Assembly: GCA_001823065.1 (NCBI GenBank)
Contig: MHTJ01000003.1
Span: 181,460-245,459 of the forward strand
DNA from: Candidatus Vogelbacteria bacterium RIFOXYD1_FULL_44_32
GTDB lineage: Bacteria > Patescibacteriota > Minisyncoccia > Phycocordibacterales > XYD1-FULL-46-19
Length of the DNA stretch: 64,000 nt
Direction of reading: 5' to 3'
In this document: in pieces, positions 4,794 to 64,000 of the stretch
Layout: every line of letters starts with the position of its first letter
Numbering within the stretch: the stretch's first letter is position 1
The notes under the pieces: model-generated
The model's input: the letters and a program-made list of their open reading frames with translations, nothing else
Told to the model about the DNA's origin: nothing
The model's database searches: none
Made by a program: the position numbers and the translations under genes

Positions 4794-4876
4794 GCGTCGG
4801 TGGTGGAGTGGTCAATCACAACAGACTGTAAATCTGTCGCCTTACGGCTACGCAGGTTCGAATCCTGCCCGGCGCA
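4794..4876 (+). tRNA. tRNA-Tyr (anticodon GUA), long variable arm
   Basis: Hand-folded. Acceptor GCGTCGG/CCGGCGC with discriminator A. Anticodon loop CUGUAAA. T-arm CAGGTTCGAATCCTG. 83 nt, no encoded CCA. Confidence 0.85.
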
Positions 4877-6094: not shown

Positions 6095-6169
6095 TGGCGG
6101 GCCCACGAGGACTCGAACCTCGAACTACGGTTTTGGAGACCGGCGTTTTACCATTGAAACTATAGGCCC
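6095..6169 (-). tRNA. tRNA-Trp (anticodon CCA), CCA encoded
   Basis: The reverse complement reads GGGCCTATAGTTTCAATGGTAAAACGCCGGTCTCCAAAACCGTAGTTCGAGGTTCGAGTCCTCGTGGGCCCGCCA. Anticodon loop CUCCAAA. T-arm CGAGGTTCGAGTCCTCG. Confidence 0.85.
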
Positions 6170-7584: not shown

Positions 7585-7666
7585 TGCCGGAGGGGAGACT
7601 TGAACTCCCATGTCTTGCGACACACGATTTTGAGTCGTGCGTGTATACCAATTCCACCACTCCGGC
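7585..7666 (-). tRNA. tRNA-Leu (anticodon CAA), long variable arm
   Basis: The reverse complement reads GCCGGAGTGGTGGAATTGGTATACACGCACGACTCAAAATCGTGTGTCGCAAGACATGGGAGTTCAAGTCTCCCCTCCGGCA. Anticodon loop CUCAAAA. The six-frame ORFs 7484..7675 and 7309..7686 are spurious overlaps. Confidence 0.8.
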
Positions 7667-23046: not shown

Positions 23047-23117
23047 TGCCGGATCGTCTAAAGGTAGGACATGAGCCTTTGAAGCTCAGTATCTTGGTTC
23101 GATTCCAAGTCCGGCAG
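23047..23117 (+). tRNA. tRNA-Gln (anticodon UUG)
   Basis: U1:A72 acceptor (TGCCGGA/TCCGGCA, discriminator G). Anticodon loop CUUUGAA. T-arm TTGGTTCGATTCCAA. Confidence 0.8.
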
Positions 23118-51481: not shown

Positions 51482-51553
51482 TGCTCTCGGCCGGAGTCGA
51501 ACCGGCATTACCAGCTTCGGAGGCCAGCGTTCTATCCATTAAACTACGAGGGC
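51482..51553 (-). tRNA. tRNA-Arg (anticodon CCG)
   Basis: The reverse complement reads GCCCTCGTAGTTTAATGGATAGAACGCTGGCCTCCGAAGCTGGTAATGCCGGTTCGACTCCGGCCGAGAGCA. Anticodon loop CUCCGAA. T-arm GCCGGTTCGACTCCGGC. One C:A mismatch and two G:U pairs in the stems. Confidence 0.7.
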
Positions 51554-52362: not shown

Positions 52363-52438
52363 TGGTGGACCCTATCGGATTCGAACCGATGACCTCCTCA
52401 TTGCAAATGAGGCGCTCTACCAACTAAGCTAAGGGCCC
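52363..52438 (-). tRNA. tRNA-Ala (anticodon UGC), CCA encoded
   Basis: The reverse complement reads GGGCCCTTAGCTTAGTTGGTAGAGCGCCTCATTTGCAATGAGGAGGTCATCGGTTCGAATCCGATAGGGTCCACCA. Confidence 0.85.
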
Positions 52439-58005: not shown

Positions 58006-58076
58006 TTGTAAGTGTGGACCCACGGGGAGTCGAACCCCGGACTCGTCCATGCCATGGACGCGTGTTACCACTATAC
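58006..58076 (-). tRNA. tRNA-Ala (anticodon GGC), G3:U70 present
   Basis: The reverse complement reads GGGCCCATAGTATAGTGGTAACACGCGTCCATGGCATGGACGAGTCCGGGGTTCGACTCCCCGTGGGTCCA. Anticodon loop AUGGCAU. Confidence 0.8.
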
Positions 58077-58255
58077 TATGGGCCCTAAAACACCCCTGAT
58101 TTCATTGGGGTGTTCGGGCAAACATTTGGTTACAAATGTTTTAGCCCTAAAACTCCCAGATATACTAAACGCTGTTCGGGCGATCATCTGCAAGGGCAGA
58201 TGATTTAGCCTAAAACATCATTGTTTGAAAAAATAACACATTTCTGTTACATTTC
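58069..58255. repeat. Three tandem roughly 62-nt hairpin units beginning (T)TAGCC(C)TAAAAC, abutting the tRNA-Ala(GGC) 5' end
   Basis: Units at about 58071, 58132 and 58196. Each has the CTAAAAC junction (the first is the tRNA 5' end GGGCCC+TAAAAC). The first two carry GTTCGGGC plus a long hairpin (GGGCAAACATTTG-gtta-CAAATGTTTTAGCCC, and GGCGATCATCTGC-aagg-GCAGATGATTTAGCC). Confidence 0.45.
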
Positions 58256-59590: not shown

Positions 59591-60181
59591 ATGTATAAAA
59601 ATAAAATACTGGTGATATTTTCTATAATAGTATTAATAATTGTTGTACTTGGTGGTTACCTTTATACGAGCACATTACAACAATTAGTCTTTGATAACCC
59701 AGAGAATATTACGGAAGTTAAGACAGAATTTTGGGGTGATAATTATTATGGGAAAAGTGAAACATTTATAAATCCTGAATGGAAAACCTATCAAAACGAT
59801 CAATATCACTTTAAATTTGACTACCCTATACTAGGTCAGCATAAAATTAAACCCACTCTTTCAGAGAACGACCTTAGGTTTGAGCTTATACCTTTTAATT
59901 CGTCTCTAAGAGTAAGTAAGGTGGGAAAAGTAGACATAGACGACTATGTTCGTTCTAATAGTTGGGACGAAACGAGCTTCAATAAAGTTACATTTAAAGG
60001 AATTGAAGCATATGAAGGTGTTGATGGTGGTATGGACAGCTCATATATTATTGTTTTTATAAAAGATGACTATTTATACAAATTTAGTTTTACTGGTATA
60101 GGAACAACGATTGAAGAGTTAAAATCTGAGCTTAACCCTGAGCACAAGCGAATATTATCAACGTTTGAGTTTATTAACTAA
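59591..60181 (+). CDS. Hypothetical anchored protein, AT-rich
   Basis: N-terminal TM. No family recognised. Confidence 0.45.
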   Translation: MYKNKILVIFSIIVLIIVVLGGYLYTSTLQQLVFDNPENITEVKTEFWGDNYYGKSETFINPEWKTYQNDQYHFKFDYPILGQHKIKPTLSENDLRFELIPFNSSLRVSKVGKVDIDDYVRSNSWDETSFNKVTFKGIEAYEGVDGGMDSSYIIVFIKDDYLYKFSFTGIGTTIEELKSELNPEHKRILSTFEFIN

Positions 60182-60719
60182 ATATCTTATGCAAACAAAA
60201 TCAATTTTGAAGTGGGTGTTGATCGGATCAATTGTGGTTGTTTTGAACCTGTTTTTCAATTTTGCGATTGATACTGTCTATAATGCGCCGGAGTACGACA
60301 AGTTTTGTGTGGTTAAACAGGTTACTATTCAGCCGGACACCGAAGCAAAATGTGTCGCCGAGGGTGGGGCGTGGACCGCTAATACGGAAAAGCCGGTAAA
60401 TGCCAGCACGCCGGTGATGAAGGGTTGGTGTGATACCAATTTTACCTGTGGTAAAGAGTTTAATGAGGCAAACAGTGTCTACAACCGCAATGTGTTTATT
60501 GCTTTGGTGGTGCTAGGGCTACTGTCATTAGGGGTTGGGCTGTTTGTCACTGCTACCGGCAGTGCGGTGTCACTCGGGCTTTCTCTAGGTGGTCTCTTGT
60601 CTTTCATTATTGCCTCGATCCGCTACTGGTCGGATATGGACGAATACTTGCGGGTAATAGTGCTGGGTATTGCTCTCGTGCTTTTGATTGGGGTGGGGAT
60701 TAAGAAGTTTAAAGAATAA
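60165..60719 (+). CDS. Hypothetical membrane protein (N- and C-terminal TM segments)
   Basis: Intact ORF, Cys-containing central region. Confidence 0.45.
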   Translation: MSLLTKYLMQTKSILKWVLIGSIVVVLNLFFNFAIDTVYNAPEYDKFCVVKQVTIQPDTEAKCVAEGGAWTANTEKPVNASTPVMKGWCDTNFTCGKEFNEANSVYNRNVFIALVVLGLLSLGVGLFVTATGSAVSLGLSLGGLLSFIIASIRYWSDMDEYLRVIVLGIALVLLIGVGIKKFKE

Positions 60720-60808: not shown

Positions 60809-63727
60809 ATGAAGTCCTACGATCATAAAAAAATCGAAAAGAAGTGGCAGAAGGATTGGGCTAAGTCTGGTTTGTACGAAACCAAAGATAATTCTAAAAA
60901 ACCAAAGTTTTATTGTTTAGACATGTTCCCTTACCCGTCGGGTGAAGGGCTCCATGTTGGTCACCCCAAGGGCTATATTGCCACCGATATTTATAGTCGG
61001 TATATGCGGATGAAGGGTTTTAATGTTTTACACCCGATGGGTTGGGACGCTTTTGGACTACCGGCCGAAAATTATGCCATCAAAAACAAAGTTCACCCGA
61101 AAATTTCGACCGCTAAAAATATCAAGCACTACAAACAGCAACTAGAAATGCTGGGTCTGTCTTACGACTGGACCAGGGAAATAGACACCACCGACCCTGC
61201 TTACTATCGGTGGACGCAGTGGATTTTCTTGCAGATGTTTAAGCAGGGTTTGGCCTATGAGTCCTATGAGCCGATCAACTGGTGCCCATCGTGCCAGACG
61301 GGCCTCGCCAACGAAGACCTAGAAGACGGCAAGTGCGAACGCTGTGGCTCGGAAATAGAGAAGAAACCTATGCGCCAATGGGTGCTAAAGATTACCGACT
61401 ACGCTGATCGACTTTTAAATGATTTAAGTACGACCGACTACGACCGACCAAAGATTATTGACAAAACAAACCCTCCTATCAAAGGATCGCCTTTTGTTGA
61501 AAGAAATGTTGCTCATGCTATTGTTTTTGATCCTAAAAATAAAAAATATCTCATTATTAGAAACAAAAAACACGGCTGGGACACGTTGGTGATTGGTGGT
61601 ATTGAAAAAGGAGAAACTGCTGAAGAAACCGCTCGGCGGGAAGTAAGGGAAGAAACTGGCTACACCGATCTTGAATTTAAAAAAATATTGGGGGGTGAAA
61701 CCGAAGCTCACTATTACGCTAAACACAAAGGTGAAAACCGGATTGCTTTTGCTACGGCTGTTTATTTTGAATTAAAAAGTAATAAACGGGTGCCGATCGC
61801 CGACGGTGAAGACGCGGCCGATGAAGTGCTGTGGATTGAGGAAAAAGATTTCGTGCCGGGGAAAATGATTAACGCTGAACTGCCGGTCTGGCTCGCGCGA
61901 CTCAAAAATCCAAAACTAGGCTGGCCTAAACCGCTGCTCGAGTGGCCCGAATCAATTAAAGAAGCCCAGCGCAATTGGATTGGCCGAAGTGAAGGTCTGC
62001 TTTTTACTGCCCCAGTTAAAGATACTGACATTAAAATCCAAACATTCAGTGCTCACTTTGAAGCATTTTATGCCGATACTTTTGTAGTTATCGCACCTGA
62101 CCATCCGTTGTTACCCCAACTGGTAGCCGGTACTGCAAATGAAAAAGAGGTTCTAAAATTTTCCCAAGATTTAGTTAAAAAAAGAATCAAGGAAGGTTTT
62201 AATGCCAACAAAGAGCCGGAGGGTATATTTACTGGTCGCTATATTGTGGACCCAATCGGTAACGGTGATCTACCAATTTGGGTGGCCAATTTTGCCATTG
62301 CTGACTATGGCACCGGCATAGTAAAGGCCTCTTGTCACGATGAACGCGATTTTGCTTTTGCTAAAAAATATAATATTAAAATGAAGCCAGTGTTGTTTCC
62401 GGCTGATCCAGCCGAGAAGGCGAAGGTGAAAAATCTGGAAGTTTGTTATTTTGATATGAAAAATGGTCTATTGGCCGAACCAGCCGAATTTGCGGGTAAA
62501 AAAGCGGGAGATATTAGAGCTGATATTGCCAATTTTGCGGTTAAAAAAGGTCTGGCCGTTAAAAAAGTGAGCTATAAACTGCGCGACTGGGTCTTCTCTC
62601 GCCAGCGCTATTGGGGTGAGCCTATCCCACTCATTCATTGCGAGAAATGCGGCGTGGTCGCGGTACCAGAAAAAGATTTGCCAGTGGAACTACCCAAAGT
62701 AAAAAGCTATGCACCGACCGGTACAGGGGAGTCGCCGCTAGCCGATATTAAAAGTTGGGTCAATACGAAGTGCCCCACCTGTAAAGGCCCAGCGAAGCGC
62801 GAAACCAACACTATGCCCCAATGGGCAGGCTCGTCTTGGTATTATTTGCGCTACATGGATCCTAAAAATAAGAAAGCTTTAGTGGATTCAACCAAAGAAA
62901 AATATTGGTCACCAGTTGACCTCTATGTCGGCGGGACCGAACACGCCACTCGTCACCTTATTTACGCCCGCTTTTGGCATAAGTTTTTAAATGATATTAA
63001 AGTGGTTTCCACCAATGAACCTTTTAAGCGCTTTGGCAAAAGTCTGGGCCTCGTTTTAGGTGAAGATGGCCGCAAAATGAGCAAGCGCTGGGGTAATGTC
63101 GTAAACCCCGACGAGGTGGTAGCGACCTACGGTGCCGACACGATGCGCTTGTACGAAATGTTTATGGGTCCGTTTGACCAAGAAATAGCGTGGAATACTC
63201 AAAGCATGATTGGCTCGCGGCGTTTTTTGGAGAAAGTTTGGAAACTGAGTGAAAAAGTAGGCAAGAAAACTACTCCAGAGATAGCGGTTGATTTGCATCG
63301 GACGGTCAAAAAAGTGGGCGAGGATATTGAAAGCTTTAATTTTAACACTGCTGTTTCCAGCTTGATGATTTTGGCTAATAGTCTAGAGAAATGTGAGACT
63401 ATTGCCCGAGCCGATTTTGAGGCTTTAATTAAGCTTTTAGCCCCTTTTTCACCCCATATAGCCGAGGAATTGTGGTCTGGTAAAGGTTCGGTGCATAACG
63501 CGCCTTGGCCAATATATGACGAGGCCAAAACAATATCAGCCATGGTCACGATTATTATTCAAGTGAATGGCAAAGTGAGGGGGAATATTAATGTCAAAAT
63601 GGGTACAGTTGAGACCACAGTGGTAGAAGAAGCGATGTCTTGTGCTAGTGTCGCCATGCATATTTCTGGTAAGGAAATAAAAAAGACTATCTTTATCCCC
63701 AATAAGTTGGTTAATTTTGTGGTGTAA
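60809..63727 (+). CDS. leuS: Leucyl-tRNA synthetase carrying an inserted Nudix hydrolase domain (roughly aa 207-377; nt 61427-61940)
   Basis: HIGH motif (HVGHP). KMSKS motif (KMSKRWGN). CP1 editing motifs (TGIVKASCHDERD). Anticodon-binding and C-terminal domains present. Between LLNDL and EWPESIKEAQRNWIGRSEG, which are contiguous in E. coli LeuRS, lies a full Nudix fold with the box GGIEKGETAEETARREVREETGY. Confidence 0.9.
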   Translation: MKSYDHKKIEKKWQKDWAKSGLYETKDNSKKPKFYCLDMFPYPSGEGLHVGHPKGYIATDIYSRYMRMKGFNVLHPMGWDAFGLPAENYAIKNKVHPKISTAKNIKHYKQQLEMLGLSYDWTREIDTTDPAYYRWTQWIFLQMFKQGLAYESYEPINWCPSCQTGLANEDLEDGKCERCGSEIEKKPMRQWVLKITDYADRLLNDLSTTDYDRPKIIDKTNPPIKGSPFVERNVAHAIVFDPKNKKYLIIRNKKHGWDTLVIGGIEKGETAEETARREVREETGYTDLEFKKILGGETEAHYYAKHKGENRIAFATAVYFELKSNKRVPIADGEDAADEVLWIEEKDFVPGKMINAELPVWLARLKNPKLGWPKPLLEWPESIKEAQRNWIGRSEGLLFTAPVKDTDIKIQTFSAHFEAFYADTFVVIAPDHPLLPQLVAGTANEKEVLKFSQDLVKKRIKEGFNANKEPEGIFTGRYIVDPIGNGDLPIWVANFAIADYGTGIVKASCHDERDFAFAKKYNIKMKPVLFPADPAEKAKVKNLEVCYFDMKNGLLAEPAEFAGKKAGDIRADIANFAVKKGLAVKKVSYKLRDWVFSRQRYWGEPIPLIHCEKCGVVAVPEKDLPVELPKVKSYAPTGTGESPLADIKSWVNTKCPTCKGPAKRETNTMPQWAGSSWYYLRYMDPKNKKALVDSTKEKYWSPVDLYVGGTEHATRHLIYARFWHKFLNDIKVVSTNEPFKRFGKSLGLVLGEDGRKMSKRWGNVVNPDEVVATYGADTMRLYEMFMGPFDQEIAWNTQSMIGSRRFLEKVWKLSEKVGKKTTPEIAVDLHRTVKKVGEDIESFNFNTAVSSLMILANSLEKCETIARADFEALIKLLAPFSPHIAEELWSGKGSVHNAPWPIYDEAKTISAMVTIIIQVNGKVRGNINVKMGTVETTVVEEAMSCASVAMHISGKEIKKTIFIPNKLVNFVV

Positions 63728-63730
63728 TGT

Positions 63731-63758
63731 TTGCATATTGACATAAATTAGATATAAT
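63731..63758 (+). promoter_or_regulatory. Sigma-70-like promoter (TTGCAT-16 nt-TATAAT)
   Basis: -35 TTGCAT at 63731-63736. -10 TATAAT at 63753-63758, about 25 nt upstream of the next ATG. Confidence 0.45.
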
Positions 63759-63783
63759 GGTAGTAATTAATAAACAAAATTTT

Positions 63784-63999
63784 ATGAAAAAAACCCAGGA
63801 AGTAATTACTTTTAAACCAAAAGATATCACTAAGCGTCTTTTGACGGTTCTGTCCGAACGGGCCCAGGATGTTATCACCAAACGATACGGCTTGGGTAAA
63901 AACTCGACCTGCCTTACCTTGGAAGCGATTGGTTCCGAATATGGTATTACCCGTGAGCGGGTTCGTCAGATTGAAAACTTTTCTATCAATGCCATCAAG
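63784..63999 (+). CDS. Protein beginning with a sigma-70 region-4-like HTH (partial; continues past the window end)
   Basis: LSERAQDVITKRYGLGKNSTCLTLEAIGSEYGITRERVRQIE closely matches sigma-70 region 4.2 (RFGL...TLEEVG..FGVTRERIRQIE). Confidence 0.45.
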   Translation, partial: MKKTQEVITFKPKDITKRLLTVLSERAQDVITKRYGLGKNSTCLTLEAIGSEYGITRERVRQIENFSINAIK

Positions 64000-64000
64000 A

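Follow-up and report, generated by a model that had tools for sequence, protein, structure and literature searches.

Domains added to aminoacyl-tRNA synthetases (aaRSs) are a classic route to new functions, and the well-studied cases are mostly eukaryotic and non-catalytic. Among bacterial class Ia synthetases there is a curated precedent for an extra enzymatic domain in the isoleucyl-tRNA synthetase (IleRS) that carries a GNAT domain (NF040702, ileS_w_GNAT), and in bifunctional NadM–Nudix (NF003786) a HIGH-type Rossmann nucleotidyl-transferase is fused to a Nudix hydrolase acting on a related nucleotide. Here we analyse a 64,000-nucleotide stretch of DNA from Candidatus Vogelbacteria bacterium RIFOXYD1_FULL_44_32 (the window; contig MHTJ01000003.1, positions 181,460 to 245,459), in which leuS, the gene for leucyl-tRNA synthetase (LeuRS), encodes a Nudix domain within the body of the synthetase. 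The arrangement was proposed in a first-pass annotation made from the sequence alone, and it holds: the open reading frame (ORF) is exact, the Nudix profile scores above its cut-off and the fold is predicted with confidence. The protein differs from IleRS–GNAT in both the synthetase and the added domain. It also differs from NadM–Nudix, which is an end-to-end fusion serving NAD metabolism and whose model matches the inserted domain only weakly, through its Nudix part and with a score far below cut-off. Compared with canonical bacterial LeuRS (Thermus thermophilus 1h3n/2bte; Escherichia coli 4aq7/5omw), it retains the domain order, the fold, the HIGH and KMSKS signatures, the ZN1 cysteines, a connective peptide 1 (CP1) editing domain with GTG and HDxRD motifs, the anticodon-binding domain and the C-terminal domain. 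It departs from the canonical enzyme in the 169-aa Nudix domain between T. thermophilus residues 208 and 210, in having SAHFEA for the Thr-rich editing motif and in lacking the leucine-specific domain.

The leuS ORF lies at 60809-63727 on the plus strand, with the start, end and strand first annotated, and encodes a 972-aa LeuRS of the bacterial type (features below are on the same strand unless stated otherwise). TIGR00396 (leuS_bact) scores 947.4 bits against the whole protein (cut-off 548.4) in an alignment of two stretches that breaks at profile position 206/207. Alignment to T. thermophilus LeuRS pairs aa 1-207 with residues 1-208, aa 377-750 with residues 210-578 and aa 757-972 with residues 638-876, so that the 169-aa insert (aa 208-376; 61430..61936) replaces about one residue of the T. 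thermophilus enzyme; the first estimate had been about 170 aa at about 61427-61940. The insert, of subtype 1a and at what we call site A, stands in place of a 2-3-residue loop between ...LLNDL and LEWPE, where insert-free orthologues read YADRLLADLTKLDWPE or YADRLLADL-TK-LDWPE. Two arms of a helical hairpin host it. The upstream arm is the helix ITDYADRLLNDL (aa 195-206; 61391..61426; helix H195-207 in the model), which aligns up to T. thermophilus residue 208, and the downstream arm, LEWPESIKEAQRNWIGRSEG (aa 377-396; 61937..61996; model helix H381-391), aligns from residue 210 and leads into CP1. The Nudix domain sits on the tip of this hairpin, between the ZN1 module and CP1.

PF00293 (NUDIX) covers aa 233-350 (E=4.9e-15), between tRNA-synt_1 (aa 12-210) and the PF13603 editing domain, and scores 56.2 bits in the whole protein and 60.3 bits in the insert alone, against a cut-off of 21.1. 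The Nudix box, GGIEKGETAEETARREVREETGY (aa 263-285; 61595..61663), which had been described as near-consensus, in fact matches GX5EX7REUXEEXGU exactly, carries the catalytic residues E278, E281 and E282, and is the sole box of this consensus within the 64-kb window. In AlphaFold models the insert is predicted to fold confidently as a Nudix α/β/α sandwich, with a predicted local distance difference test (pLDDT) score of 92 for the insert alone and 86-95 inside the whole protein. Downstream of the box lies a family motif, AHYY..HKGENR (aa 300-311; 61706..61741), which contains an aromatic pair at +17/+18 after the box together with the invariant residues K307, N310 and R311; its residues are probably substrate-binding. 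A 100-aa ORF on the minus strand (61424..61726) had been called an artefact, which is reasonable, because it runs antisense to a selected Nudix frame conserved in hundreds of homologues; we do not regard it as a gene.

The insert is neither an assembly product nor, on its composition, a newcomer. It had been taken for AT-rich and relatively recently acquired, and neither claim survives. Its GC content is 0.434 against 0.444 in the remaining gene (507-nt windows in the gene have a standard deviation of 0.022), and 45% of same-size windows over the whole 64 kb have GC at or below this value. Lower values are confined to the first half of the insert (0.396) and to third codon positions (GC3, 0.385 versus 0.463). 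Composition gives no case for recent acquisition. The identical 972-aa product is present on 8 contigs from three assembly sources (ENA, JGI and Logan), one of them 495 kb long, which excludes the chimeric assembly that the first-pass annotation had named as a way in which its proposal could fail. In a coarse recombination-tract test, the core blocks flanking the insert resemble those of the protein's own clade, defined by the SAHFEA editing motif, and not those of the clades with the most similar inserts, and so give no sign of a recently imported mosaic segment.

Conservation of the insert is high. Nudix-box residues are at least 90% conserved among 50 homologous site-A inserts, and G263, G264, E278, E281, E282, T283 and G284 do not vary among 29 diverse members of the family. 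Mean pairwise identity across 32 subtype-1a inserts is 0.716 and that of their LeuRS cores 0.633; in 92% of 495 pairs conservation is higher in the insert, and the identities of insert and core correlate (r=0.45). LeuRSs with a core 53-64% identical to that of the window protein carry the same insert at the same site with 70-75% identity, whereas the nearest free-standing relatives of the insert share 37-48%. In comparison with the nearest relative, the insert has a ratio of non-synonymous to synonymous substitution (dN/dS) of 0.083 and the core one of 0.042; in comparison with distant relatives, the insert has a dN of 0.20-0.22 and the core one of 0.33-0.35. By these comparisons the insert is no less conserved than the core of the synthetase, and the purifying selection on it is no weaker. 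A neighbour-joining tree of LeuRS cores is star-like and does not separate gain from loss of the insert, so that the number of events is argued below solely from nearest-neighbour evidence.

The window gene belongs to a family of LeuRSs that has been modified many times over. All 120 best homologues are LeuRSs, and all organism names given by the sources, for the minority of entries that have one, belong to Patescibacteria (Parcubacteria, Taylor-, Nomura-, Vogel-, Pace- and Magasanikbacteria, to which GTDB genomes add Falkowbacteria). We mapped their inserts by hmmsearch domain coordinates on a hidden Markov model of 29 insert-free members. No insert is present in 30 of the 120, and the others show five insertion hot spots; these prevalences are biased, as the homologues were ranked by how closely they resemble a query that itself has an insert. 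Site A (core ~208), the one used in the window, is occupied in 76/120, 69 of them with a strict Nudix box; versions of ~330 aa represent tandem Nudix domains. Site C (core ~364-385), inside CP1, is occupied in 46/120, 36 with a strict Nudix box. Nudix is rare at sites B and E, and the remaining sites hold other hydrolases: an α/β Ser_hydrolase (PF06821) at site B (core ~237-241; 13/120), an α/β hydrolase at site D (core ~448; 7/120) and a HAD domain at site E (core ~493; 6/120). Site A itself holds a Ham1/ITPase domain, as assigned by Pfam, in the homologue P0050, and the insert of P0051 is closely similar to it. The longest LeuRSs, of up to 1558 aa, combine 3-4 inserts. A genome scan with window-specific patterns recovered 11 embedded Nudix–LeuRS loci.

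A subfamily profile built from 29 diverse inserts and two free-standing relatives has, beyond the box, the invariant residues W257, K307, N310, R311 and W342. Searching 1.84 billion representative proteins with it gave 138 matches at E<=1e-30 and 388 at E<=1e-10. Among the 146 new top matches are 104 LeuRSs, 30 free-standing proteins of 126-210 aa, 12 classed as 'other', at least five of which are LeuRS fragments, and one prolyl-tRNA synthetase (ProRS). Of the 304 domains in the pooled set, site C holds 127, site A 80+27, site B about 10, site E 3 and site D 1; a further 32 are free-standing, and one is in ProRS. Nearest-neighbour relations among these domains run from site to site and join free forms to embedded ones: the subtype found in the window has a 68%-identical relative at site C, and free-standing members are mostly nearest to embedded ones. 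This pattern argues that fusion, fission or relocation has happened repeatedly. The subfamily is a dedicated one of Patescibacteria, overwhelmingly linked to LeuRS, in which it occupies about five loops.

Free-standing members extend the link to gene order. Two of them, P0139 and P0173, end 2 bp upstream of a leuS start (P0173 at L047:3451-3936, leuS from L047:3939), and the leuS that follows P0173 has no insert through core position 463. This junction suggests translational coupling of Nudix and leuS, a split version of the fusion. A third, P0160, lies in a co-directional cluster (L048:482-8549) in the order MetRS, an unassigned gene, TatD, Nudix (P0160), two small ORFs, a YfbR-like HD nucleotidase, a further unassigned gene, a second Nudix gene and leuS; the second Nudix protein (145 aa) is different from P0160, and the leuS is insert-free. 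A fourth, P0156 (L046:1533-2084), is found two genes upstream of the Nudix–ProRS gene P0253 (L046:2762-4693), which encodes an archaeal-type ProRS in which a Nudix domain of this subfamily separates the anticodon-binding domain from the C-terminal one. Nudix–ProRS is rare (5 clusters), and its nearest insert-free relatives are labelled as DPANN archaea (Nanoarchaeota, Woesearchaeota).

The best characterised sequence and structure neighbours of the insert are Nudix hydrolases of diadenosine polyphosphates (ApnA) and RppH (Aquifex aq_158, 3i7u; lupin, 1f3y/1jkn; T. thermophilus Ndx1; E. coli RppH), with which it shares the fold, a perfect box and an aromatic residue 17-18 positions after it. 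An Aquifex Ap4A hydrolase is the best sequence match of the insert in the PDB (E=1.6e-5), and a lupin Ap4A hydrolase is its best profile match (E=2.9e-6). The residues at +17/+18 are Y302 and Y303; family-wide the pair is aromatic (Y/F/H) and not strictly Tyr. A tyrosine 16-18 residues downstream of the Nudix box reportedly marks ApnA hydrolases. In addition, R232, K253, K307 and R311 are invariant or near-invariant basic residues that would suit a polyphosphate chain. The insert is unlike these enzymes in having an identity of just 13-24% to them, below every curated family cut-off, in its own N-terminal extension (..NP..G.P.VER) and K..NR motif, and in being embedded in a synthetase. RppH models (PRK00714) reach 19-22 bits against cut-offs of 116-259, and the MutT model TIGR00586 about 20 bits against 97.9; weak matches to NudB and RppH models occur in up to 24/29 family members. 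The first-pass proposal of an Ap4A-hydrolase-like activity is compatible with the weak best matches and the tyrosines at +17/+18.

Other Nudix subfamilies are recognised by a NuCoA motif upstream of the box, by SQPWPFPxS downstream of it or by a proline at +15/16. These markers, read over aa 240-303, led us to reject an assignment of the insert to the CoA, NADH or ADP-ribose pyrophosphatases: the upstream segment reads KYLIIRNKKHGWDTLVIGG, positions +15/+16 are A and H, and there is no SQPWPFP. A CoA-related activity, also put forward initially, is disfavoured by the lack of a NuCoA-type motif before the box.

Our best explanation, to which as a whole we assign a probability of roughly 0.4, is that the window gene encodes a housekeeping LeuRS with an autonomous Nudix pyrophosphohydrolase as a third catalytic module, coupled to the synthetase and with ApnA or, more broadly, NpnN dinucleoside polyphosphates as the best-guess substrate. 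Its parts differ in strength. The insert is very likely an active Nudix hydrolase functionally coupled to LeuRS, the repeated and independent physical linkage being the reason to suppose that the two activities work together; ApnA/NpnN as the substrate class is a tentative choice. The housekeeping status is argued from synteny, because the gene order around the window leuS (YchF ... leuS, Sigma70_r4/HARE-HTH, DUF8128, YceG, RNase_T) is that of the insert-free orthologue P0040, and the window gene appears to be the housekeeping leuS and not a paralogue. In the proposed mechanism, the Nudix site would hydrolyse a nucleotide polyphosphate that either arises at the adenylate-forming site of the synthetase or competes for that site. 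The reaction of aminoacyl-adenylates with NTPs, which yields Ap4N, is an established chemistry of aaRSs, and the best guess is for this reason a dinucleoside-polyphosphate hydrolase acting in cis. Its substrates would be the dinucleoside polyphosphates (Ap4A, Ap3A, Ap4N) that arise from NTP attack on Leu-AMP; hydrolysis would return AMP and ATP or ADP, and would hold down the level of this by-product or alarmone in a cell whose enzyme repertoire is minimal.

Several observations weigh against this explanation. Class I LeuRS is not known as one of the strongest producers of Ap4A. Similarity of the insert to characterised Nudix enzymes is weak and mostly carried by the Nudix box, and no curated NCBIfam Nudix equivalog reaches its cut-off for the insert. 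The top structural neighbour is an Enterococcus faecalis Nudix protein (2azw, 21% identity) that has no determined function (PMC5389931) and hence offers no functional lead. Close syntenic orthologues of the window LeuRS do without the insert. One free-standing member, P0145, lies 4 bp downstream of fpg/MutM, and among the seven free-standing members examined the neighbourhoods of P0165 and P0181 show no link to a synthetase, P0165 instead adjoining a gene of the PRK/uridine-kinase family. Finally, the presence of Ham1/ITPase at the same site, and of HAD and α/β hydrolases at other loops, fits nucleotide house-cleaning better than ApnA hydrolysis.

The last point leads to the alternative that survives best, in which the insert is a house-cleaning hitch-hiker: a MutT- or ITPase-like pyrophosphatase of (d)NTPs or NDP-X that serves nucleotide salvage from within an essential, constitutive gene of a tiny genome, with LeuRS as a mere permissive scaffold and no mechanistic coupling. 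Related LeuRSs with Ham1 at exactly this site, HAD at site E and Ser_hydrolase at sites B and D are what it would lead one to expect, and the absence of the insert from syntenic orthologues, the placement of P0145 by fpg/MutM and of P0165 by the PRK/uridine-kinase gene, the TatD and YfbR-like HD nucleotidase genes of the P0160 cluster and the appearance of NudB, NudI and MutT1 among the weak matches are all in keeping with it. However, a scaffold-only role leaves unexplained why a single Nudix subfamily occurs almost solely with LeuRS, and at several loops, and why free-standing copies form 2-bp operon junctions with leuS; the MutT and NudI family models, moreover, score far below cut-off. We regard this reading as possible, while leaning against it.

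A more inclusive reading would make patescibacterial LeuRS a modular platform onto which hydrolases of small molecules (the one dedicated Nudix subfamily, Ham1/ITPase, HAD and α/β-hydrolase) have been grafted repeatedly at defined loops. The Nudix domain would then be a third catalytic site, not recognised before, that works in cis on what the adenylation site produces, for instance Ap4A/ApnN or, as a remoter option, a mis-activated adenylate or an analogue of ATP. We think this rather unlikely; if it were true, translation fidelity or alarmone control would be tied to nucleotide economy in ultra-small symbionts.

The insert could instead be an RppH-like RNA 5'-end pyrophosphohydrolase or decapping module, to which LeuRS presents the 5' end (triphosphate, Np4A or NAD cap) of a tRNA or another RNA. 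CP1 handles the acceptor end of the tRNA, and sites A, B and C are either beside this domain or within it; RppH models of NCBIfam are weakly matched by up to 24/29 family members, yet at no more than 22 bits against the cut-offs of 116-259, and with RppH the identity is 13-16%. An RNA substrate would not agree with the occurrence of Ham1 at the same site, and RNase P leaves a monophosphate at the 5' end of mature tRNAs, which also speaks against this reading. We therefore judge it improbable. A non-catalytic insert, comparable to the Nudix-like domains of NrtR or MutY and acting as a nucleotide sensor, a regulator or a structural spacer, is very improbable: regulatory Nudix domains usually have degenerate boxes, whereas here the catalytic box residues are all invariant or at least 90% conserved across subtypes. 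An artefact or recent event, whether an assembly chimera or an AT-rich foreign segment, has in its favour the first-half GC and the GC3 given above, and we dismiss it because the GC of the whole insert lies within one standard deviation of the gene, the same protein occurs on 8 contigs from three assembly sources, the same junction recurs in dozens of homologues, and the insert co-varies with the core and has a dN/dS indicative of purifying selection.

Synthetases with extra domains are already known, IleRS–GNAT among them; Nudix–LeuRS is a widespread and strongly supported further case. In a full-text search of the literature we found neither LeuRS nor any patescibacterial aaRS described as having a Nudix domain, tRNA synthetases go unmentioned in a comprehensive review of the Nudix clan, and such names as the sources give these proteins are just 'leucine--tRNA ligase' or 'class I tRNA ligase family protein'. 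The prediction is of a bacterial class I synthetase with a conserved, apparently active hydrolase inside its body. Occurrence of the same subfamily at several loops, as an operon partner of leuS and once in ProRS amounts to 'Rosetta-stone' evidence, the usual mark of functional partnership, and this repeated joining across the phylum points to an undescribed working partnership between Nudix and LeuRS. Should the substrate be a by-product of the synthetase, Ap4A for example, the protein would be the first synthetase to come with its own site for disposing of it, and it would offer a handle on alarmone or damaged-nucleotide management in minimal-genome Patescibacteria.

Around the insert, the synthetase itself is well preserved. 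The full-length model has a pLDDT of 88.7 and superposes best on E. coli LeuRS 5omw (TMt 0.86). The HIGH signature is HVGH (aa 49-52; 60953..60964), which is nearly invariant in the homologue alignment, and the KMSKS signature is KMSKR (aa 756-760; 63074..63088), also conserved there. C159, C176 and C179 of the ZN1 cysteines, CPSC...CERCG (aa 159-180; 61283..61348), are invariant. The anticodon-binding domain (aa 828-935; 63290..63613) matches PF08264 (Anticodon_1) with E=3e-21. Judged by these motifs, the synthetic site appears intact. The leucine-specific domain (T. thermophilus residues 579-637) is absent at aa 750-757 (~63056-63079), as it is from AgnB2 and Helicobacter pylori LeuRS (PMC5059758).

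The CP1 editing domain follows the insert at aa 388-575 (61970..62533; PF13603, E=3.2e-40), downstream of the ZN1 module. The first-pass annotation had considered the HIGH, KMSKS and CP1 editing motifs intact. This is correct for HVGH and KMSKR and for two editing motifs, GTG and CHDERD (aa 509-514; 62333..62350), the latter with the editing-site aspartates D511 and D514 invariant in the homologue alignment, but not for the Thr-rich motif, in which SAHFEA (aa 414-419; 62048..62065) stands for TTRPDT in the alignment to 1h3n. The position equivalent to E. coli T252 is an alanine, and neighbouring pocket residues (MAVP) are also changed. SAHFEA is conserved across one subclade, in proteins with and without inserts, and the other variants are NSVPQT and TTRPDT; between SAHFEA and TTRPDT clades the CP1 blocks are 0.32-0.56 identical and the catalytic blocks 0.7-0.85. 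Editing specificity may be altered or lost, and this divergent motif in the same protein raises a second question, that of translational fidelity in the phylum. The LeuRSs of Mycoplasma (M. mobile, 3ziu) resemble the window protein in coming from a reduced-genome bacterium and in having non-canonical editing-site residues. Their CP1 is described as degenerate or missing (Li et al. 2011, as cited in PMC5059758), whereas the window LeuRS has a CP1, and its variant motif is conserved within the clade.

Upstream of leuS lie two ORFs, 59591-60181 and 60165-60719, which have no Pfam match and of which the second is clearly hydrophobic. The region 59600-60200 has a GC content of 0.29-0.35, far more AT-rich than the Nudix insert. 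In the syntenic locus L044, too, small genes like these lie ahead of leuS. An Rfam scan of the window found no T-box or other leader upstream of leuS; its sole matches are seven tRNA genes, at 4794-4876, 6098-6169, 7585-7666, 23047-23117, 51482-51553, 52366-52438 and 58015-58085. Downstream of leuS, from 63757 to 64000, where the window end cuts the sequence, and at L001:12949-16357, genes for a protein with Sigma70_r4 and HARE-HTH domains, DUF8128, YceG and an RNase_T-family exonuclease follow. Typical bacterial alanyl-tRNA synthetase (AlaRS) is much longer than 580 aa; the AlaRS gene ~8.6 kb downstream of leuS, outside the window (L001:18622-20364), encodes just 580 aa, comprising tRNA-synt_2c and tRNA_SAD.

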